Of a stretch of 64,000 bases of DNA, positions 30,714 to 51,548 are shown in pieces. The notes under the pieces are model-generated. The model made no database searches, was not told where the DNA came from, and saw only the letters and a program-made list of their open reading frames with translations. A program made the translations under genes and the position numbers. This DNA comes from a virus, in IMG/VR virus record IMGVR_UViG_3300044712_002690, positions 32,001 to 96,000 of that record; one strand, 5' to 3'. The number at the start of each line of letters is the position of its first letter. The first letter of the stretch is position 1.

Positions 30714-32339
30714 ATGAACTATTTTGATTTTTACCTGCGTTTATCCGCTGTAACTATTTCAAAGTTGCATGAGAAATATCAAGATCAAATACCTTTAGAA
30801 GATTTAGAAGGTATTATAAGATCAGACCCTACTTATCCAGGTGGAGATCAAGTAGGATCATATGGTCCTTGGTTAGTAAAACAATATCTACAAGGATCTT
30901 TTGATTTATCTATGTCAAATGAAATGATAACATTACTAAATGAATTTACACGCTATAAACCTAATTTAGAAAAGAAAGATATATATACGTATCAATCTGT
31001 TGATGAACTACATCAAGCAGTAGCACCTTTTATTTACTATCAACCTAACGAAGAAGAAACTTCAGCAGAACCAAGCATACTTTATGATGATGGTATTTGG
31101 GTTGCAGTTAAACCAAATACATTTGAAGAAGAATGTTTTTATGGGCAAAAAACTACATGGTGTACTAAAAGTAACTCTTCCATGTTTCAAAAGTATCAAG
31201 GAAATCTTTTTATTATAATAAATAGAAAAGAAAATAAAAAGTTTCAATTTGATCTTAAAGATTATCAATTTAAAAATGAAAAAAATCAAGAGGATCTTGA
31301 AGGATTTTTAAATTTAAATCCACCACAAGAACTCCTTACTTCATTAGGAATACAAGATATTCTTACTCCTCCTGCTACAGCACCTGAACTTAGCCAAGTA
31401 CAAGTAGCTGTACAAGAAAGAATTTCTAAATTTCTTTCTTTAAATCAAGATAATGAAAAAATGCTTGCAGAAGCATTATCTGTTGTAAATATTCCATTTG
31501 ATAAAGCTGATTCACTAGAAACATATAACGCAATATCAAATACAAAAGCAGTTCGTATGCACTATCTACAAAAAATGATACAAAATACTCCTTCTCCTAC
31601 AATTGATATAATAGAATCCCTAGCGCAGGATCCTAAGTATGTTCTTCTTGATAATGCACTTAATTATTTATATTATAGAAATTCTGCTATTACTACGTAT
31701 CAAAATATAGCTAATCCTTCAACTGGCTCATTTAGAGATAAAGCACTTAGACTAAATAAAGATCCATTTGATGAAGCAGATAAACGTCATATTCATACTG
31801 TAGATATAGAAAATAATACAATAAGCAAAGATAGACGTGTAAGCGATCTTGTTAAAGAAATTACAATAGATTCACCTAAATGGAAAGAATTTGGAAAAGA
31901 TGGTGAATTATTTACAAGTAACATTCCTAGACGATTAGTTAAAGAGATAAGAGCATTTGAGGAAGATGAATATAGTGAACACAACAAATATATGGAAGCT
32001 GTATTTGACATAGGAGAGACTTTTTTTGAATACGTTGCGGAAGCAGGTGTTGCTTGGATACAAGGTAATTCTATATCTCCACAACAAATGCAAGACGCAA
32101 AAATAGTATATTATTTTCTTGATAGTGTCCGTGCTACTGATCCTACGTTTGAAGGATTTTTCATGGATAGTTTTTATGATATTTGGCCAGGTATTCTTAG
32201 TGAAATGGGAACTGAAGATTTAGCTGAACTTGGAGTTAATTCAGATCCTATGGTATATTTTGATATGGGAAGTGACATTCTATTTGAAACAGAAATGGGA
32301 CATTCTTTCTTAAGATTTGTATTTGGAATAATTGAATAA
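30714..32339 (+). CDS. GxxTxWCT-domain (PcfJ-like) protein, paralog 1
   Basis: ILYDDGIWVAVKPNTFEEECFYGQKTTWCT...LFIIIN...KFQFD; leader FYLRLSA. Confidence 0.6.
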   Translation: MNYFDFYLRLSAVTISKLHEKYQDQIPLEDLEGIIRSDPTYPGGDQVGSYGPWLVKQYLQGSFDLSMSNEMITLLNEFTRYKPNLEKKDIYTYQSVDELHQAVAPFIYYQPNEEETSAEPSILYDDGIWVAVKPNTFEEECFYGQKTTWCTKSNSSMFQKYQGNLFIIINRKENKKFQFDLKDYQFKNEKNQEDLEGFLNLNPPQELLTSLGIQDILTPPATAPELSQVQVAVQERISKFLSLNQDNEKMLAEALSVVNIPFDKADSLETYNAISNTKAVRMHYLQKMIQNTPSPTIDIIESLAQDPKYVLLDNALNYLYYRNSAITTYQNIANPSTGSFRDKALRLNKDPFDEADKRHIHTVDIENNTISKDRRVSDLVKEITIDSPKWKEFGKDGELFTSNIPRRLVKEIRAFEEDEYSEHNKYMEAVFDIGETFFEYVAEAGVAWIQGNSISPQQMQDAKIVYYFLDSVRATDPTFEGFFMDSFYDIWPGILSEMGTEDLAELGVNSDPMVYFDMGSDILFETEMGHSFLRFVFGIIE

Positions 32340-41700: not shown

Positions 41701-44421
41701 ATGGGAAGTTATCATAATTCAATTTGTCAAAAATGTGGTTTGTGGGATGGAGTTAAGTCCCCATGTATGGAAGGCAGAGGTAATCCCTCTGCTAAATTGC
41801 TTGTTTTGGGGGAGACTGTTGGTTTCTATGAAGATCAGCAGGGTGTTCCCTTTGTAGGTGAGATTGGACAAAAGTTACAGAATTATCTCAATAAGCTAAA
41901 TGTACAACATTATATTAGTACTGCGATAAAATGTAGACCAACTAAAATTGTACAAAAGCCTAAAGGACCTGTAGCTGAAAATAGAACCCCAACTGGCAGA
42001 GAAATTCAATATTGTTCTGCTAAAACATTTGAATTGATTGATAGAATGAAACCTGAAGTAATTTTAGCTTTAGGTTCAACTCCTCTTAATCAATTACTTC
42101 AACTTGGTATTGGTATGGGTATTGCTAGAGGACGTATTTATTACCATCCTCAACTAGAATGTTATGTTGTACCAACATGGCATCCTTCCTATTTAGCTAA
42201 AACACAGGATCCAATTTATGAAAAGCAATTCTATGAAGATATCAGATTAGCAGCTAGTTTAGTAGCTGCTCCTAAAACTAGAAGAATTGCATCTCGTCCT
42301 ATATCATTATCTTCATCTTTAGATATAGAGAAATATCTAGAGAAACTTAAAACAGTTGAAGAGTTAGCATTTGACTTAGAAACAACAGGATTGAATTGTA
42401 GGACAGATAGAATCACTGACATTTCTTTTTGTCATACACATGGTCAAGGTGTTCATATTAAATGGGAAAATATTCTTCCATATTACTCTACATTAAAAGC
42501 TATATTTGAACGACCTGATCTTAAATTAATTGCGCATAATGGTAGGTTTGACTGTAAGTTTCTTAGAGCTGTAGGAATTAATCCAGCTAATTTTTATTTC
42601 GATACTATGCTTGCTTATCATACGACTACAATGACGTTTGAGGGTGAAGGCAAGACATTATATAGCCTAGAAATTATGTCTTGGTTATTAACTAAAGAAG
42701 GAAACTATAAATCTATTTTAGAGGAATTTGGTGGCATTGCTGGTCATCAAGGAAAGAAAGCTGAAGATGCTAAACCTGAAACTCCTAAAGTATCTAAAAA
42801 GATTAAACCTGTAGTTAGAATACCATTAGTATCTCCAATTGATCCTTTATTTGATTTGCCTGAAGTAGAAGATGTAAATGTTGCTGAAACATTCTTTTCT
42901 CATATTGATTCAAGCAATACAGATACAGCCCTTTTGGATAGCTTTATTCCACAGAAAAGAAGAAGGGTTCCTGTTAATGCACTCACAGGAGAAGAATTTC
43001 ATATTAATGAGGAAGAAGAGCAAACATTAAAAAAATATTCAACATTTGTTCAAGATAAATTAAAGAAAAGAATTACTGATTTAAATCTTGAACCTATTCA
43101 ATACTATGCAGCTATGGATGCTGATGTAACATTTCAGATTTATAAGCAATTAGAGAATGAAATAAACAAGCAATATAAAGAAGTATTTCACAATCTTATA
43201 ATGCCAGTTAATAAAACTCTTCTTAGACTTGAAGAAAATGGTATTTTGTTAGATGTTGAATATGTTGATAAGCTTATTGAAGAGAATACCAAGCAATCAG
43301 CTAAGATCCAGAAAAAAATGTTCGATAAGATAGGATTTGAATTTAACATAGGTTCTGGTAAAGACCTTCAGAAAGTAATTTATGAGCATTTGAAAATACC
43401 AGTAGATAAGAACTTTATGACTAAAGGTGGCAAGAGCGGTAATCAGCAACCTTCTACCGATAAGGAAGCTGTCGAACATTTTGCTAAAAAATATCCTATT
43501 CTAAATGGTATTGTAGAATATAGAAAAATAGAAAAAGAAACATCTACTTATCTTGAAGGATTTAAAAACTTTATTGATCCTGTTACAAAAAGGATTCATC
43601 CTTCGTATTTGCAGCATACTACTGCAACTGGACGGCTTAGTTCACTTCAACCGAACGCTCAGAATATTCCAAAAGATAATCGTATTAGAAATATGATTAT
43701 TCCTAGACCAGGTTGGAAGTTTGTTACAGCAGACTTATCACAAGCAGAACTTCGTATTCTTGCAATGATGTCTGGTGATAAAAAAATGCAGGAAGCATTC
43801 ATAGCAGGATACGACTTTCACACATATACTGCTTGTAACATTATGGGAATTCATGTAGAAGAGTATAGTAAAGAAGATAAAACTCATGTTAAAACCAGAG
43901 GATTAGCAAAGAATGTTAACTTTGGCGTTGTTTATCAGATAAGTGCTCAAGCTCTTTCAGCAGATTTAAATATCTCTTTACAAGAAGCACAAGCATTTAT
44001 TGATAAGTTTTATAATACTTATCCAGATGTAAAAAGGTGGATTGATAGAACGAAAGCATTTGCAGCTAGGCATGGTTATGTTGAAACTCTTTATGGTAGA
44101 CGTAGATATTTACCATTTGCAATGAGTATGAAAGAAGATATTCAAGCAAGAGCTTTACGACAAGCTGTTAATACTCCAATTCAAGGTACAGCTAGTGATT
44201 GTGCTGCATTAGGATTGGTTAGGGTTCAAAATTTTATTGACGAGAATAAGTTAAAGACACAACCTGTTATGATTATTCATGATGAGATTGTTCTTGAAAC
44301 TCCCCCTGAAGAAGTAGATTTGATGTTAGAGAAGTTACCATACTTTATGACAGTAGGATTACCTAAAATAACAATCCCTCTTGTAGCAGATGCAGAAGTA
44401 TTAGAAAGATGGAAAAAGTGA
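41701..44421 (+). CDS. polA: Family A DNA polymerase with N-terminal family-4 uracil-DNA-glycosylase domain (SPO1-type)
   Basis: UDG: CQKC..PC, GRGNPSAKLLVLGE, KCRP, WHPSY. Exonuclease: FDLETTG, HNGRFD, YAAMDAD. Polymerase: TGRLSS, ADLSQAELR, AKNVNFGVVY, IHDEIV. Confidence 0.95.
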   Translation: MGSYHNSICQKCGLWDGVKSPCMEGRGNPSAKLLVLGETVGFYEDQQGVPFVGEIGQKLQNYLNKLNVQHYISTAIKCRPTKIVQKPKGPVAENRTPTGREIQYCSAKTFELIDRMKPEVILALGSTPLNQLLQLGIGMGIARGRIYYHPQLECYVVPTWHPSYLAKTQDPIYEKQFYEDIRLAASLVAAPKTRRIASRPISLSSSLDIEKYLEKLKTVEELAFDLETTGLNCRTDRITDISFCHTHGQGVHIKWENILPYYSTLKAIFERPDLKLIAHNGRFDCKFLRAVGINPANFYFDTMLAYHTTTMTFEGEGKTLYSLEIMSWLLTKEGNYKSILEEFGGIAGHQGKKAEDAKPETPKVSKKIKPVVRIPLVSPIDPLFDLPEVEDVNVAETFFSHIDSSNTDTALLDSFIPQKRRRVPVNALTGEEFHINEEEEQTLKKYSTFVQDKLKKRITDLNLEPIQYYAAMDADVTFQIYKQLENEINKQYKEVFHNLIMPVNKTLLRLEENGILLDVEYVDKLIEENTKQSAKIQKKMFDKIGFEFNIGSGKDLQKVIYEHLKIPVDKNFMTKGGKSGNQQPSTDKEAVEHFAKKYPILNGIVEYRKIEKETSTYLEGFKNFIDPVTKRIHPSYLQHTTATGRLSSLQPNAQNIPKDNRIRNMIIPRPGWKFVTADLSQAELRILAMMSGDKKMQEAFIAGYDFHTYTACNIMGIHVEEYSKEDKTHVKTRGLAKNVNFGVVYQISAQALSADLNISLQEAQAFIDKFYNTYPDVKRWIDRTKAFAARHGYVETLYGRRRYLPFAMSMKEDIQARALRQAVNTPIQGTASDCAALGLVRVQNFIDENKLKTQPVMIIHDEIVLETPPEEVDLMLEKLPYFMTVGLPKITIPLVADAEVLERWKK

Positions 44422-45542: not shown

Positions 45543-46007
45543 ATGAAAATTTCAAAGATATTTAAAACTGAGACAAGTCATATTGTAAGAGATGCTGTTT
45601 ATGTTAGGTGTAGAGAAACGCCGCATGGTCATTCTTACAAATGGATTGTAACTGTTGAAGGGCCCGTTCAGTCAAATGGTATGGTAATTGATTTTAAAGA
45701 ACTTAGTTTTGCAAAGGATTTTATTGATCTATTTGACCATTCAATAGTTTTTTGGTCTAAAGAAGATCCTATTATCCTTGAATTCTTTTTGAAGAATTTT
45801 AAAAGAGTTCTTGTAATGAATAAAAATACTACTGCAGAAAATATGGCAAAGTTAGTATTTAAGAGCCTATCTGATATTATAGAAGATAAGTTTCGACATG
45901 TAAAACTTGTTCAAGTTGATGTGTGGGAAACTGAAAATAGTTATGCTTCTGCTACATATTGCGATGAAGAAGATACATTTAGTTATATTCACAAAGACCA
46001 AAGTTAG
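45543..46007 (+). CDS. queD: 6-carboxy-5,6,7,8-tetrahydropterin synthase
   Basis: CRETPHGHSY, MVIDFKEL, FDHS, TTAENMA, VWETENSYA. Confidence 0.92.
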   Translation: MKISKIFKTETSHIVRDAVYVRCRETPHGHSYKWIVTVEGPVQSNGMVIDFKELSFAKDFIDLFDHSIVFWSKEDPIILEFFLKNFKRVLVMNKNTTAENMAKLVFKSLSDIIEDKFRHVKLVQVDVWETENSYASATYCDEEDTFSYIHKDQS

Positions 46008-46016
46008 GATAATATT

Positions 46017-46466
46017 ATGACAGAAGCATTTATTTGTTGGGAAGACATTTCTACATATCTACTTAAATCTAAGTTTGATTGTTCTCCTGATGTAATAATT
46101 GGAGTACATCGAGGTGGGCTCCCTATAGGAGTAACGCTTAGTCATAGATTTGAAAAGCCTTTAGATTCTTTTCATGTATCGAGATATGACAGAAAATCAG
46201 AAATCGTTAGATGTCATTTAGATGCGAAATCTCATTATAACGAAGTTCTTTTAGTAGATGACATATCTGATAGTGGTGAGAGTTTAATTACTGCTATAAA
46301 ATATCTACATGAAAATTATTCGATAGGTACAATTAAAACATTATGTTATTGTATTAAAAAAGATACAAAATTTATTCCAGATTTTTATAATGAGACATTT
46401 GAGAGTAATATTTGGATAGTATTTCCTTGGGAAAATTATCTTAAGATAGGTGATTCTAATGAGTGA
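46017..46466 (+). CDS. Type I purine phosphoribosyltransferase (Gpt-like)
   Basis: IIGVHRGGLPIG, PRPP-binding VLLVDDISDSGESL, C-terminal WIVFPWE. Confidence 0.85.
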   Translation: MTEAFICWEDISTYLLKSKFDCSPDVIIGVHRGGLPIGVTLSHRFEKPLDSFHVSRYDRKSEIVRCHLDAKSHYNEVLLVDDISDSGESLITAIKYLHENYSIGTIKTLCYCIKKDTKFIPDFYNETFESNIWIVFPWENYLKIGDSNE

Positions 46467-47136
46467 ATATAAATTAAAAATTACTGAAATTTTTACATCA
46501 ATTCAAGGAGAAGGACCCCATATGGGTTATCCTTCCCACTTTATCCGCCTGTATGGCTGTTCTATGGGGTGTGCTTGGTGTGATACAAAGTATTCTTGGA
46601 AAGAGTACGAGGAAATGTCTTTGGAGGATCTAACTACCGTTTTAAAGCTATTAAAAGAATCTTACACTAATATTAATAATGTAGTAATAACAGGCGGAGA
46701 ACCTTTAGAGCAGAATATCCAGTCATTAGTTGAACTTTGCCATTCTTTTGATTTAGATGTAGAAGTAGAAACAAATGGTGATCTTAGTAAATCTGCTACA
46801 GAAGAATTACCTGATGTAGATATATATATTGTATCACCTAAATTTTTAAGTGATAAACATATCGAAAAATATACTCAAGAAGTAGTAGATAAGTTTCTTG
46901 AAAAGTTTGTTTGGTTTAAATTTGTTTGTGCTTCTATAGATGATGTTAATTTTGTTTCTGACTTTTGTCAAAAAAGAGATATTCCAAAAGAAAGTGTCTG
47001 GATAATGCCAAAAGGAATAACTAATGAAGAAGTGACACAATCAAGTAAAGCAATTGTCAATTCTTGTTTAAGTTGTGGTTACAAACTTTCCGCTAGAATG
47101 CATATATCAATCTGGGATGGAAAGCGCGGAGTATAA
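46459..47136 (+). CDS. queE: 7-carboxy-7-deazaguanine synthase (radical SAM)
   Basis: EIFTSIQGEG, FIRLYGCSMGCAWCDT, ITGGEPL, VETNG. Confidence 0.95.
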   Translation: MSEYKLKITEIFTSIQGEGPHMGYPSHFIRLYGCSMGCAWCDTKYSWKEYEEMSLEDLTTVLKLLKESYTNINNVVITGGEPLEQNIQSLVELCHSFDLDVEVETNGDLSKSATEELPDVDIYIVSPKFLSDKHIEKYTQEVVDKFLEKFVWFKFVCASIDDVNFVSDFCQKRDIPKESVWIMPKGITNEEVTQSSKAIVNSCLSCGYKLSARMHISIWDGKRGV

Positions 47137-47159: not shown

Positions 47160-47825
47160 ATGGGAAGATCTGAAAATTGTGTAGTGCTACTATCTGGAGG
47201 ATTAGATTCCACAGTAATGTTGTATTGGGTTAAAGAGAGATATGATAAAGTGTATCCTCTTTATGTTAATTATGGTTCAAGTCATAGGGAAAAAGAATAT
47301 GCTGCTGCATTGAAAACATGCGAAGAATTTAATCTTACTCTTGAGACTGTAAAACTCGAAGGTAATATTCTCAGTGGTTCATCTCTTGTTGACAGTGCTG
47401 TTTCTACTCCTAGTGATTTGAAAGATACAATTAACACAGTTGTTCCATTTAGAAATATTATTATGCTTAGTCTTGCTGCTAGTTATGCTGACAAAGTAAA
47501 TGCCGGTGTTATAGCTACTTCACCAACTAAAGAGGATTTTGAAGTTTTCCGTGATTGTAGAAGAATTTTCCACGATCAATTGGAAGTTGTGCTGAGAACA
47601 GCAGCAAAATTTGATCAACCTTATCAAATTCTTACTCCCTTTATTAATAACACAAAGGATGAAGTTATTGCTATTGGAGTTGGTTTAGATGTAGATTTTT
47701 CTAAGACTTGGACATGTTATTCACCAAAGAATGACAAACCTTGTGGTGTATGCCCTTCATGTCAAGTAAGAGAAAAAGGGTTTAAACTTGCTGGCATTCC
47801 AGATCCACTTATTACGGAGAAATAA
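47160..47825 (+). CDS. queC: 7-cyano-7-deazaguanine synthase
   Basis: LLSGGLDS, VPFRN, DCR, TWTCY...CGVCPSC. Confidence 0.95.
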   Translation: MGRSENCVVLLSGGLDSTVMLYWVKERYDKVYPLYVNYGSSHREKEYAAALKTCEEFNLTLETVKLEGNILSGSSLVDSAVSTPSDLKDTINTVVPFRNIIMLSLAASYADKVNAGVIATSPTKEDFEVFRDCRRIFHDQLEVVLRTAAKFDQPYQILTPFINNTKDEVIAIGVGLDVDFSKTWTCYSPKNDKPCGVCPSCQVREKGFKLAGIPDPLITEK

Positions 47826-47826
47826 C

Positions 47827-48450
47827 ATGCATATTCATTTTCATGACGAACAAGAAGAAATTAGATATAATGGGGACCAACTTAAAAGTTTGTTTCCTTA
47901 TTCTATTTCAAAAGTAAAAGGTGATTGTCTTGTAGCCTTTTTTGGTCAAATGGATGTAAGAACAGATCATATGGTTGATATGGAAGATGTACTTCAATCT
48001 GACTATATTTGGTCTCCACTTGCATTTAATATGGTTGTAGAGATTTTCCATATTGGAATTGAGTCTGCAGTTCTTTATCAACGATCACTAATGCAAATAG
48101 CTACTGAAACGTTGAGAGACTTTTTGGTTTATCATAATATTGCTTCTGCTGATATTAAGCTAGAAGGCGATGACATTATGGTTAAATTTCTAGGACCTAA
48201 AGAAGATGATAAGTATGGAGTATGGAAAAAACTTTCTGTTTCAATTGCTACAGTAAGTCATATTTCAGGTCTTATCCATTCTGCTCTTAATGTTGATGTA
48301 GATGATAAAATTCCTGTTCCTGCAACTGGACTTCGTGATATTCTTATTGAAAGTAGTATAATTGTAGAATACTGCAAAGAAGTTTGCAACAGGTTTAAAG
48401 ATTTTGTTCATTCAGTTAAATTGGCTTCAGTTAAAGTAAAAGGTGTTTAA
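47827..48450 (+). CDS. DUF366 family protein (biotin/lipoate-ligase-like fold)
   Basis: YNGDQL...GDCLVAFFGQMDV...MVDMED...QR...GDDI...KLSVSIAT.S..S.LIH...N...PV...GL.D matches my recollection of the DUF366 consensus. Likely start MHIHF. Confidence 0.8.
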   Translation: MHIHFHDEQEEIRYNGDQLKSLFPYSISKVKGDCLVAFFGQMDVRTDHMVDMEDVLQSDYIWSPLAFNMVVEIFHIGIESAVLYQRSLMQIATETLRDFLVYHNIASADIKLEGDDIMVKFLGPKEDDKYGVWKKLSVSIATVSHISGLIHSALNVDVDDKIPVPATGLRDILIESSIIVEYCKEVCNRFKDFVHSVKLASVKVKGV

Positions 48451-49069
48451 TATGGCAGAATTAAAAGATTTACTTGACGTTCCTGCATTCAATGATAAAA
48501 TGGTTAAGGGAGCTTCTCTTTTGTTAGAAGGACTTATGGAAACCACTGGTTCTTCCATTGACATTACATCAGACGAAAATTTTAAAAAGACTCCTTATCG
48601 AATTGCAAAATCTTATCTTGAAATGTGTCAAGGTCTATCTCAGTTATCAGAAGTTAAAGATATACTAGCTACTAATTTTCCTAGTGATTATCATGGAATG
48701 ATTGTTATTGATTCAATTGATGCATTTTCGATGTGCCCGCATCATTTTTTACCAGTACAATATAAGATAGATTTTGGATATATTCCTCATAATAAGATGT
48801 TGGGTCTTTCAAAGATACCTAGATTTATTAAGTTACTTTCAAAAAGACCTGCGTTGCAAGAGGATTTGACTAAAGAAATTATTACTTACTTTGTAGATTA
48901 TGTGCAACCTGAAGGAGCAATAGTAACTCTTAGGGGTGTTCATAATTGTATGGTGTGTAGGGGAGTTGGAGCAGTTAACTCAGGTGCAATTACTAGTGAG
49001 ATTTTCGGTAGTTTTGAGAAAATTGAAACTAGATCAGAATTTTTGCAGTTGATTCAGCATAAGAGATAA
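48443..49069 (+). CDS. folE: GTP cyclohydrolase I
   Basis: TPYRIAK, SMCPHHFLP, GLSKIPR, LQEDLT, HNCMVCRG. Confidence 0.95.
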   Translation: MFNMAELKDLLDVPAFNDKMVKGASLLLEGLMETTGSSIDITSDENFKKTPYRIAKSYLEMCQGLSQLSEVKDILATNFPSDYHGMIVIDSIDAFSMCPHHFLPVQYKIDFGYIPHNKMLGLSKIPRFIKLLSKRPALQEDLTKEIITYFVDYVQPEGAIVTLRGVHNCMVCRGVGAVNSGAITSEIFGSFEKIETRSEFLQLIQHKR

Positions 49070-49071
49070 TT

Positions 49072-49302
49072 GTGTTCAAGAAAAAATCTAAGCTTAAAAA
49101 ATCCTGTGAGATTCCGGAGGGGGAATTACTGCCAATTTCCCCTCATAGAGTATTAGATATTTTTAAAGACCCAAAAATTGCAACAAGTTATGAAATTCAA
49201 GTATTATCTAAAACATATCTTGAATTGTTTTCAATGATTGTAGAAAGTATTGAAGAAGAAGTCATAGAAGCTGTAGGTTCTGGTGATATTCCTCTTCATT
49301 AA
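49072..49302 (+). CDS. Hypothetical protein
   Basis: 76 aa within the que operon. Confidence 0.5.
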   Translation: MFKKKSKLKKSCEIPEGELLPISPHRVLDIFKDPKIATSYEIQVLSKTYLELFSMIVESIEEEVIEAVGSGDIPLH

Positions 49303-49314
49303 AGGAAGTATAAT

Positions 49315-50463
49315 ATGAAAATTCAATGTGATCCTATTCTTTATGGATTAGCAGTAAAGAAAATACGTAAAGCTAATCATAAATGTGAACTCACAGGAAA
49401 AGAGATTTCTTTAGAAACTTGTTATGTTAATAGTAAATATGATTCAGCTGAAATTCTTGATTACATTAAACAGGATATGGAAGCCTTTTATTGGATTTTT
49501 GATAGAATGTGGGAGGATTGGCTAGGTGTTTTTTCATTAGATACAGCACATTTATTTAAATCACATCCTCTAGATGATTATGCAAAAAAAATTATTGATA
49601 AAGTACTTGTTAATATGAAAACTCCTTTAGGAGCAAGAACAGAGTACATTAATCAATACGATCCTACATTACTTTTACCTGTTTTAAGAGAACCTACTCG
49701 TGAATCTATCGGGTATGAATTAGATCATATTCCTTTTAGAGGAATTGATGTGTGGAATGGTTATGAATTATCCTATTTAGACAAAACTGGAAAACCTGAG
49801 ACTAAAATGATCAGGTTAGCTTATGATTCTGACAGTGATTCTATCATTGAATCTAAATCTTTAAAACTATATTTTAATTCTTTTAATAATACTGTAGTGG
49901 AAGATCTCAATAGAGGATCAATTATAGATATTATAAAAGAAGATTTGACAAATACGATTAAATGCAACACAATTGCAGCAGAATTTGTTCAAAATAGTGT
50001 ATTTGCTTCTGATTCTAAATATACTTGTATAGATGATCTTACATGTGACAGTTATGGATATGAGTATAATCCTGATATTTTATCATTAAAACCCACAGAA
50101 GATAGAAAACCGATTTATATTTATTCAAATATGCTAAAATCTAATTGTAGACACAGTGGTTTGCCAGATTGGGGTACTGCTTATATTTCTTATCTACCCA
50201 CAACTGCTGTATTAGATAACAAATCACTATTACAGTATTTAATTTCATTTAGAAATCATAAAGAATTTCATGAAGAGTGCTGTGAACGCATCCTCCATGA
50301 TTTAATGTTTAAATTATCTCCAGATTGGCTTCGTGTTGAACTTCGTTATACTCGTAGGGGAGGACTTGACATCAATCCGATCCGTGTATATGATAGAGTA
50401 AATACTTATTCTTATGATTTTTATTCAGAATATTCTTCTTATAAAAGAGAAATGAGACAATAA
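49315..50463 (+). CDS. queF: Bimodular NADPH-dependent preQ0 reductase with ~100-aa N-terminal extension
   Basis: YDPTLL, DVWNGYELSYL, QueF motif ESKSLKLYF, catalytic KSNC...PDWG, EFHEEC, YTRRGGLDINP. Confidence 0.93.
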   Translation: MKIQCDPILYGLAVKKIRKANHKCELTGKEISLETCYVNSKYDSAEILDYIKQDMEAFYWIFDRMWEDWLGVFSLDTAHLFKSHPLDDYAKKIIDKVLVNMKTPLGARTEYINQYDPTLLLPVLREPTRESIGYELDHIPFRGIDVWNGYELSYLDKTGKPETKMIRLAYDSDSDSIIESKSLKLYFNSFNNTVVEDLNRGSIIDIIKEDLTNTIKCNTIAAEFVQNSVFASDSKYTCIDDLTCDSYGYEYNPDILSLKPTEDRKPIYIYSNMLKSNCRHSGLPDWGTAYISYLPTTAVLDNKSLLQYLISFRNHKEFHEECCERILHDLMFKLSPDWLRVELRYTRRGGLDINPIRVYDRVNTYSYDFYSEYSSYKREMRQ

Positions 50464-50522: not shown

Positions 50523-51548
50523 TTGAGACTTGTAGCAAGCGCATTTATTCGATACTACCACATTTGTAAGTATCTAGGTGTAAAAAATCTACTTGCTTCA
50601 AAACACTATCCTGAACAAGTACAAAAAGCTATTGACTATGCTATAGGAACAGATAATATAAACCCTCTTACTAAAGGAAAAGATCAAGGTGTTGAAGATA
50701 CTACTTTAATTGTAGACTCTGGAGCATTTTCTGTTTGGAATGCTGGAGGTGAACTTCATCTTGATGATTATTTAGTATTTTTAAGAGATTTTGATAAAAA
50801 GCATCGTTCTAAGTTTAAAGAAGTATGGTATGTTAACTTAGACGTTATTCCTGGTAAGCAAGGTGAATCTCCAACACCTGATCAAATTGCAAAAGCATGC
50901 GAAGACGGTTATAAAAATTATGAAATAATGAGGAATGAATTTGACAATGTAATTCATGTTTATCACGAAGGTGATGATCCTGATTATCTTAGAAAAATGA
51001 TTAATGAAGGAGCTAAATATATTGGTATATCTCCTTCTAATGATGTTATGACTGGACCAAGACAAGTATGGCTGGATCAAGCATTCCATAAATTAAAAGA
51101 ACATCCTCATATTAGAACGCATGGTTTTGCTGTCACTTCATTTGAGCTAATGAAAACATTTGATTGGTTTAGTGTTGACTCAACAAGCTGGTTTATGATT
51201 GGAATGTACGGTAAATTATGTATTCCTCTTGATAGACAAGGTCATTTATTTTTAGGTGAAGGCGATCTCGTACATAAAAAAGAAGTTAGTATTTCTGAAA
51301 GAAAAAAGAAAAGCGCTGACGGATATCTTACTTTAAGAAATTCAACTAGACCAGGTGATAGAGCATTTATTACTGAAGTAGTAGATAAGTATATTGATCA
51401 TCTTTGTAAAATACATCCTATTACACCTGAAAAATTATTTGATGAGAGAAATGAAGCACGCGTATTAGCTAATCTTGCAATGTTTTTACAATTTGAAAAA
51501 CAAGGAAGAATAGCACCTAAACTTGAACCTTTATTTGACGATCTATAG
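50523..51548 (+). CDS. dpdA: DNA-guanine transglycosylase (TGT-like)
   Basis: VDSGAFS, NLDVIP, HVYHEG, HGFA, SVDSTSW; next to preQ biosynthesis genes. Confidence 0.85.
   Translation: MRLVASAFIRYYHICKYLGVKNLLASKHYPEQVQKAIDYAIGTDNINPLTKGKDQGVEDTTLIVDSGAFSVWNAGGELHLDDYLVFLRDFDKKHRSKFKEVWYVNLDVIPGKQGESPTPDQIAKACEDGYKNYEIMRNEFDNVIHVYHEGDDPDYLRKMINEGAKYIGISPSNDVMTGPRQVWLDQAFHKLKEHPHIRTHGFAVTSFELMKTFDWFSVDSTSWFMIGMYGKLCIPLDRQGHLFLGEGDLVHKKEVSISERKKKSADGYLTLRNSTRPGDRAFITEVVDKYIDHLCKIHPITPEKLFDERNEARVLANLAMFLQFEKQGRIAPKLEPLFDDL

Follow-up and report, generated by a model that had tools for sequence, protein, structure and literature searches.

Gene Organization of the Locus

The window analyzed here is a 64,000-nucleotide stretch of viral DNA (IMG/VR virus record IMGVR_UViG_3300044712_002690, positions 32,001 to 96,000), and is part of a record of 179 kb. 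An identical DUF366 protein is also encoded on a 239-kb contig, and the source is therefore a jumbo phage. The gene order around DUF366 is polA, dnaN, queD, a phosphoribosyltransferase (PRTase) gene, queE, queC, DUF366, folE, orf76, queF, dpdA and a recA/uvsX-like gene. The genes of the cluster are as follows.

45543..46007, plus strand: queD, 6-carboxy-tetrahydropterin synthase of the PTPS family (PF01242, E 7.6e-22; syntenic in related phage contigs)
46017..46466, plus strand: small purine-type PRTase (PF00156, E 2e-15; phrog_8995)
46450..47136, plus strand: queE, radical-SAM CDG synthase (PF04055, PF13353; QueE from related phage loci matched by tblastn)
47160..47825, plus strand: queC, preQ0 synthase (PF06508, E 1.5e-53; aligned to Bacillus subtilis QueC, 3BL5)
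47827..48450, plus strand: DUF366 gene (PF04017, E 5.2e-39; 2DDZ, E 3e-11; AlphaFold2 pLDDT 88)
48452..49069, plus strand: folE, GTP cyclohydrolase I, starting at ATG 48452 or GTG 48443 (PF01227, E 1.2e-44)
49072..49302, plus strand: orf76, small protein (no Pfam, PHROG or NCBIfam match)
49315..50463, plus strand: queF, bimodular (PF14819, E 3.9e-33; PF14489, E 4e-31; also matched by the QueF HMM built here)
50523..51548, plus strand: dpdA-like DNA transglycosylase gene (phrog_887, queuine tRNA-ribosyltransferase, E 5.3e-39; no Pfam match)

A DpdA-like gene, the genes for FolE, QueD, QueE and QueC, and queF thus lie in one cluster, the order of which is matched in related phage contigs; the dpdA-like gene stands next to queF in loci L002 and L010 as well. 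As a whole, the operon is of a known kind, a DpdA/preQ1 cluster for DNA modification in phages, to which one conserved and unexplained component is added. The phage QueC has an intact PP-loop (SGGLDS) and C-terminal Cys cluster and keeps the canonical signature residues. The 1-nt gap between queC and DUF366 described in the original prediction was found, queC ending at 47825. The 8-nt overlap of DUF366 with folE that was described along with it exists if folE starts at GTG 48443, but becomes a 1-nt gap if the start is ATG 48452, which is preceded by AAGGTG and is at least as likely a start. The phage QueF carries an unassigned N-terminal extension of about 110 aa ahead of its QueF_N domain.

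The PRTase (149 aa) is encoded between queD and queE, and its matches to the XPRT and HGPRT models of NCBIfam are weak and all under the cut-off. A PRTase of similar kind adjoins queE/queC in two other clades of DUF366 phages (L013/L025 and L015), and none was found in any of the 80 bacterial DUF366 operons examined, which are the best 80 of more than 556 relatives. The enzyme could salvage the guanine that DpdA releases, or could serve in deazaguanine nucleotide synthesis in the manner of ToyH.

The DUF366 Protein and Its Family

The DUF366 ORF (plus strand) encodes 207 aa and starts at an ATG with a GGAG sequence 7 nt upstream. This ATG (47827) is preferred over an upstream TTG (47788) because the close homologues share an N-terminus beginning MHIH. 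The protein scores 134.1 bits with the PF04017 profile (cut-off 29.9) and covers positions 6-184 of its 184, and the match was confirmed on the full genome record. The gene is thus full-length, as had been proposed, and both of the motifs noted at that time, GDD (residues 114-116) and K-L-S-V-S (residues 135-139), are conserved in the family. Across 61 diverse DUF366 sequences, including that of the window, eight residues are invariant (Y14, G16, D51, E72, K135, S147, H151 and N155), six of which are polar.

The family has no assigned function, as originally stated. PF04017 is still named "Domain of unknown function (DUF366)" in Pfam, and none of DUF366, PF04017 and COG2029 is named in any paper of the literature searched. 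PH0223 of Pyrococcus horikoshii is listed in a two-hybrid table, apparently among self-interacting proteins. Neither PHROGs nor NCBIfam contains a model matching DUF366, and a blastn comparison of the operon with GenBank phages gave no match. PH0223 (2DDZ; DUF366/PF04017/COG2029) belongs to the same family as the phage protein (phmmer E 3e-11, profile E 1e-56), and the family-invariant residues are present in it, too. Unlike PH0223, the phage protein has some 15 residues inserted between GDD and K135 and is encoded in a DNA-modification operon. As PH0223 itself has no assigned function, the match provides a family name but no mechanism.

Fold and Active Site

An AlphaFold2 model of the window protein was obtained from 24 homologues (pLDDT 88, pTM 0.87). 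The model superimposes on 2DDZ with Z 25.2 and an rmsd of 1.8 Å over 184 aligned residues (Foldseek E 1e-15, TM 0.81/0.88). The biotin/lipoate-ligase fold, which the original prediction had attributed to DUF366, is recovered by the structural comparison: chains of BPL, LplA and LipB match with Z 11-13.3, the matches of Z 12-13 spanning 156-170 aligned residues, and these scores agree with Foldseek E values of 1e-6 to 1e-4 and with ESM Atlas TM values of 0.63-0.66 for a BPL/LplA/LipB-like fold. The next tier of matches, comprising the pol-gamma accessory subunit and class II aaRS cores, is clearly lower, at Z 6-9.

The core fold is therefore common to DUF366 and the BPL/LplA/LipB proteins (PF03099; PhBPL 1WNL, Aquifex aeolicus BPL 2EAY, LipB 2QHT), whereas several other features differ. 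Sequence identity is 7-19%, and no PF03099 match to the window protein was obtained at E 0.01 or better. The C-terminal SH3-like or accessory domain is missing from DUF366, and no gene for a biotin or lipoyl acceptor lies near it. The GRGRxGR loop of BPL, or the RRxxGGG loop of LplA, is absent from the consensus of the 61 DUF366 sequences, and the corresponding N-terminal half of that consensus contains an acidic MVDxED loop. The DUF366 profile was aligned to A. aeolicus BPL 2EAY by hmmsearch (weakly, E 0.09), and the family was aligned to six BirA-type proteins from DUF366-bearing genomes by hhalign (E 2e-4, probability 46%). Both alignments, although weak in their sequence statistics, pair GDD116 with the ND of BPL, K135 with its invariant lysine and GxN155 with GIGIN, and this correspondence of motifs agrees with the structural match. 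Half of the adenylate site thus looks to be retained in DUF366, to judge from the alignments and the model.

Ammonia-dependent asparagine synthetase (AsnA) is class II aaRS-like and belongs to the broad class II aaRS/BPL fold superfamily, and converts a carboxylate to an amide via an acyl-adenylate. Only general aaRS cores, at Z 6-7.5, were found among the fold matches of DUF366, and any likeness to AsnA is a mechanistic analogy, confined to the CDG to ADG conversion proposed below, and not one of family membership.

DUF366 in Other Phages

Relatives of DUF366 are encoded at 18 IMG/VR loci, and the DUF366 cluster of the ESM Atlas, with 2368 members of which 75% are viral, indicates that the family is common in phages. 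The arrangement queC-DUF366-folE-queF-dpdA is common to the window clade and a 42%-identical clade (L010/L011). Elsewhere the surroundings vary. The 168-kb phage of L013/L025 carries an ArcS-like DUF5591 gene, queD, folE2, queE, a PRTase gene, queC and DUF366; L015 has queD, queE, a PRTase gene, queC and DUF366; and L019 has queE, folE, a weak DpdA-like match, queC and DUF366. DUF366 adjoins a Gat-QueC fusion in L022 and folE2 in L012, and stands behind a weak DUF6610 (DpdA4-like) match in L016. Directly upstream of DUF366 lies queC in the window clade, L010, L013, L015 and L019. Five other records of DUF366 phages, one of them 100% and one 90% complete, were searched over their whole length, and QueC was found in all five and QueF in none.

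These distributions bear on the proposal that first drew attention to the gene, namely that DUF366 acts as a tailoring ligase and loads the primary amine of preQ1, free or in DNA, with an acyl or aminoacyl group to give a new hypermodified base. The ligase-like fold with its equivalent of the catalytic lysine, and the presence of QueF and a DpdA-like gene in the window operon, are in favor of such a reaction, as is the known tailoring of dPreQ1 in phages by DpdM and DpdN (PMC10516641). Like DpdM, DpdN and DpdL, DUF366 is an extra gene in a phage DpdA/preQ1 cluster. However, none of the three proteins, DpdL (QueD-like), DpdM (DUF3109) and DpdN (formyltransferase), is DUF366 (Cui et al., 2023; PMC10516641); the window protein matches PF04017 only and is unrelated by family to all three. 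In contrast to DpdM and DpdN, it also occurs in phages without QueF and, in cells, belongs to a housekeeping operon. The lack of QueF in all five of the other phage records argues against acylation of preQ1, as do the phages in which DUF366 is accompanied instead by Gat-QueC or an ArcS-like DUF5591 protein, both of which point to the archaeosine branch. Also against it, the window operon contains no gene for an acyl donor or carrier.

Genomic Neighborhood in Bacteria

One genome per prokaryotic species was scanned, and of the more than 556 DUF366 relatives found, the best 80 were taken for analysis of their neighborhoods. These belong to Bacillota (Desulfosporosinus, Desulfotomaculia, Heliobacteria, Syntrophomonas and Carboxydothermus), Chloroflexia, Deltaproteobacteria, Melainabacteria, Nitrospira and others. 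Neighboring ORFs were clustered and the clusters named by Pfam; many of the contigs break off early. Within this set, a conserved operon of the form queD-queC-DUF366-queE-folE(-surE) was found, in agreement with the earlier statement that DUF366 clusters with que genes in some prokaryotes: QueC accompanies DUF366 at 56 of the 80 loci, QueE at 50, QueD at 49 and FolE at 23. An HMM of 12 unimodular QueFs, built to search for QueF, gave a match no more than 8 kb from DUF366 at a single one of these 80 loci. The comparison of linkage to queF and to queC that had been suggested as a check on preQ1 acylation therefore comes out for queC (56 of 80 against 1 of 80), and the scarcity of QueF near the bacterial genes counts against that reaction.

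The linkage to queC extends to gene fusion. A QueC-DUF366 fusion protein of 438 aa, identical to the letter in three independent metagenomes, is encoded between queD and queE at the following positions.

6001-7317 of contig L111: QueC-DUF366 fusion
1406-2722 of contig L112: QueC-DUF366 fusion
3465-4781 of contig L113: QueC-DUF366 fusion

On L111, the contig that is long enough to show its context, the order is the bacterial tgt-yajC-secDF-recJ-queD-[fusion]-queE. The fusion came from the search of representatives; a search for DUF366 fusions by shared words among longer proteins yielded none.

Not every DUF366 gene has queC beside it. In Chloroflexia in which DUF366 follows queD and no queC is adjacent, QueC is encoded elsewhere in the genome, and the idea that DUF366 replaces QueC was dropped for this reason. 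On some bacterial contigs, DUF366 lies beside a gene for a penicillin-binding protein (PBP) and no que gene is nearby. The same arrangement is seen in MW495066.1, deposited as "Microcystis phage MaAM05" (L001), where DUF366 follows a PBP-type gene, as in metagenome contig L114, again with no que gene nearby. Positions 107408-125971 of this record contain secDF, glyS, fabI, engB, fliM, ompA and a peptidoglycan transglycosylase gene, and it therefore looks like bacterial chromosomal DNA. Although it is the only GenBank match labeled as phage, it was rejected as a phage context on account of these bacterial housekeeping genes around DUF366.

Types of QueC Next to DUF366

The bacterial QueCs linked to DUF366 form a distinct subtype compared with the canonical QueC of Bacillota (L116-L135). 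They have N in place of the invariant C of the PDC motif (PDN), E in place of the D six residues earlier, A in place of H near residue 42 and L in place of R near the C-terminus. Their Pfam scores are lower, at 173-193 bits, against 235-287 bits for the canonical proteins. The QueCs beside DUF366 in phages, by contrast, keep the canonical residues, and the notion that DUF366 compensates for a defective QueC was dropped because of this. Prediction of a complex of QueC with DUF366 gave scores of 0.39, 0.01 and 0.01, with a median below the mark, and weighs on neither side as to binding.

DUF366 and the Distribution of QueF

Among 14 control genomes, DUF366 was found in two, Methanocaldococcus jannaschii and Methanosarcina acetivorans, both of which have QueC and neither QueF; the archaeal evidence consists of these control-genome tallies. 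Escherichia coli, B. subtilis and most of the control genomes make preQ0 without DUF366, which is therefore not essential to the QueC reaction. A fixed sample of 151 genomes was drawn from the Bacillota, the phylum of Desulfosporosinus, in which DUF366 was found in 17 genomes, QueC in 45, QueF above the cut-off in 36 and QueA in 148. QueC accompanies DUF366 in 16 of the 17; in the seventeenth, the DUF366 match is at the end of a contig. Of the QueC-positive genomes, 1 of the 16 with DUF366 contains QueF, versus 17 of the 29 without it (Fisher p 5e-4, uncorrected for phylogeny). Twelve further QueC-positive genomes lack both QueF and DUF366.

Fifteen of the 16 Bacillota genomes with DUF366 and QueC, the two methanogens and all five of the other phage records are thus without QueF, so that DUF366 is found chiefly in genomes unable to make preQ1 via QueF, and each of these three groups argues against acylation of preQ1. 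One conserved active site across all these lineages likewise speaks against a substrate specific to preQ1. The linkage of the gene is to queC, queE and queD and not to queF or dpdA, and the claim that DUF366 acylates preQ1 to a new DNA base, for all that the fold and the window operon lend it, is now highly improbable.

The same distribution lends itself to another explanation, that DUF366 acts after preQ0 and apart from QueC catalysis, either in a QueF-independent route to preQ1 or in an unrelated, co-transcribed housekeeping role. Genomes G006, G008, G009 and G010, together with the 15 Bacillota genomes, contain the preQ0 genes, a bacterial TGT and QueA but no QueF, and the nitrile-reduction step is therefore unaccounted for in these bacteria. 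The negative association of DUF366 with QueF among QueC-positive Bacillota, the presence of TGT and QueA in all of these genomes nevertheless, and the DUF366 genes lying away from que genes each speak in favor of this explanation. The negative association may however be phylogenetic, QueF and DUF366 are present together in the window, and methanogens make no preQ1. In addition, reduction of a nitrile is beyond a ligase fold that has no redox cofactor. The QueF gap is better explained by an HgdB-like Fe-S protein (PF06050), a candidate substitute for QueF, which sits in some DUF366 operons. Its orthologues, at 52-55% identity, occur in three of the four QueF-less DUF366 genomes (G006, G008 and G009), and are absent from the QueF-positive G007 and from G010. 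This distribution is compatible with such a substitution and renders a reductase role of DUF366 itself unlikely, and the replacement of QueF by DUF366 was set aside on all these grounds. Overall, a function of DUF366 beyond preQ0 is improbable.

A Probable Accessory Protein of the PreQ0 Module

The linkage to queC, queE and queD and the natural fusion to QueC suggest that DUF366 probably assists, as a conserved accessory protein, the module that makes preQ0 (7-cyano-7-deazaguanine), and works there with QueC. The original prediction had offered a missing step of preQ0 synthesis as its second option, and of this the involvement in preQ0 synthesis is favored, whereas a strict requirement for DUF366 is not, since model bacteria lack the protein, QueC alone suffices in vitro and the phage QueC is canonical. 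QueC by itself performs the conversion of CDG via ADG to preQ0 in vitro, and all canonical signature residues are kept in the phage QueC, which thus has no visible defect for DUF366 to complement.

The phage may have acquired DUF366 within a queC-DUF366 unit that is also present in anaerobic bacteria and methanogens. FolE, QueD, QueE and QueC, together with DUF366, would then form preQ0, QueF would reduce it to preQ1, and the DpdA-like enzyme would insert the base into phage DNA. The product of the operon is most likely ordinary dPreQ1.

As to what DUF366 might contribute, CPH4 and CDG are the only carboxylic acids in the pathway, and CDG (7-deazaguanine carboxylate) is the substrate of QueC. 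As the likeliest chemistry, DUF366 may bind ATP and CDG and activate the latter as an adenylate, which would then be amidated in an AsnA-like manner (CDG to ADG) or handed to QueC. The proposal draws on the ligase fold, on the half-site ND/K/GxN that is retained and on the acidic loop that replaces the biotin-binding GRGRxGR loop; such an acidic loop would be suited to a 2-aminopyrimidinone. ATP-dependent activation of CDG takes up roughly half of the likelihood that we give to the accessory role as a whole. The claim that DUF366 is a true enzyme, acting with ATP on a 7-deazaguanine intermediate in a step so far unrecognized (adenylation or amidation of CDG being the most plausible), is tenable but on balance doubtful.

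DUF366 might instead be a non-catalytic subunit of QueC and/or QueE, regulatory, scaffolding or intermediate-binding, by analogy with HisZ, the aaRS-like regulatory subunit of HisG; as a variant, it could act as a carrier and sequester CDG or preQ0. HisZ-type proteins are among the distant fold matches, the phosphate/biotin loop of BPL is lost, the pathway runs without DUF366 in model bacteria, and the tight adjacency to queC and queE and the QueC fusion would suit such a partner. Yet the equivalents of the catalytic Asp and Lys of BPL are kept, and D51, E72, K135, S147, H151 and N155 are invariant from phages to bacteria. Invariance of this kind is seen more often in enzymes than in scaffolds. 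A purely non-catalytic partner is rather unlikely, yet a serious alternative.

The four enzymes leading from GTP to preQ0 are regarded as a closed pathway, whose product is drawn on for queuosine, archaeosine, deazapurine antibiotics and DNA modification in phages. For DUF366, there is a solved structure, a ligase-like active site and a gene order that ties it very strongly to queC, up to a natural fusion. Should it function in this pathway, present reconstructions of the pathway in anaerobes, archaea and phages lack a component; should it in fact be an enzyme, methanogens, many anaerobic bacteria and thousands of phages would have a fifth component in a preQ0 pathway that counts as "complete". 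The window operon is a poor place to seek a new base, but remains, as had been pointed out, a compact construct for probing the contribution of DUF366.

Additional Observations

Besides the QueC fusion, a Clp_N-DUF366 fusion (P0123, 347 aa) was found, in which two Clp N-terminal repeats precede a complete DUF366 domain. The polA gene upstream of the cluster (41701-44421) encodes 906 aa and contains no intein, whereas polA of the 55%-related phage L002 (L002:17-3793) encodes 1258 aa, begins with a UDG-like domain and is interrupted by an intein bearing an HNH domain.
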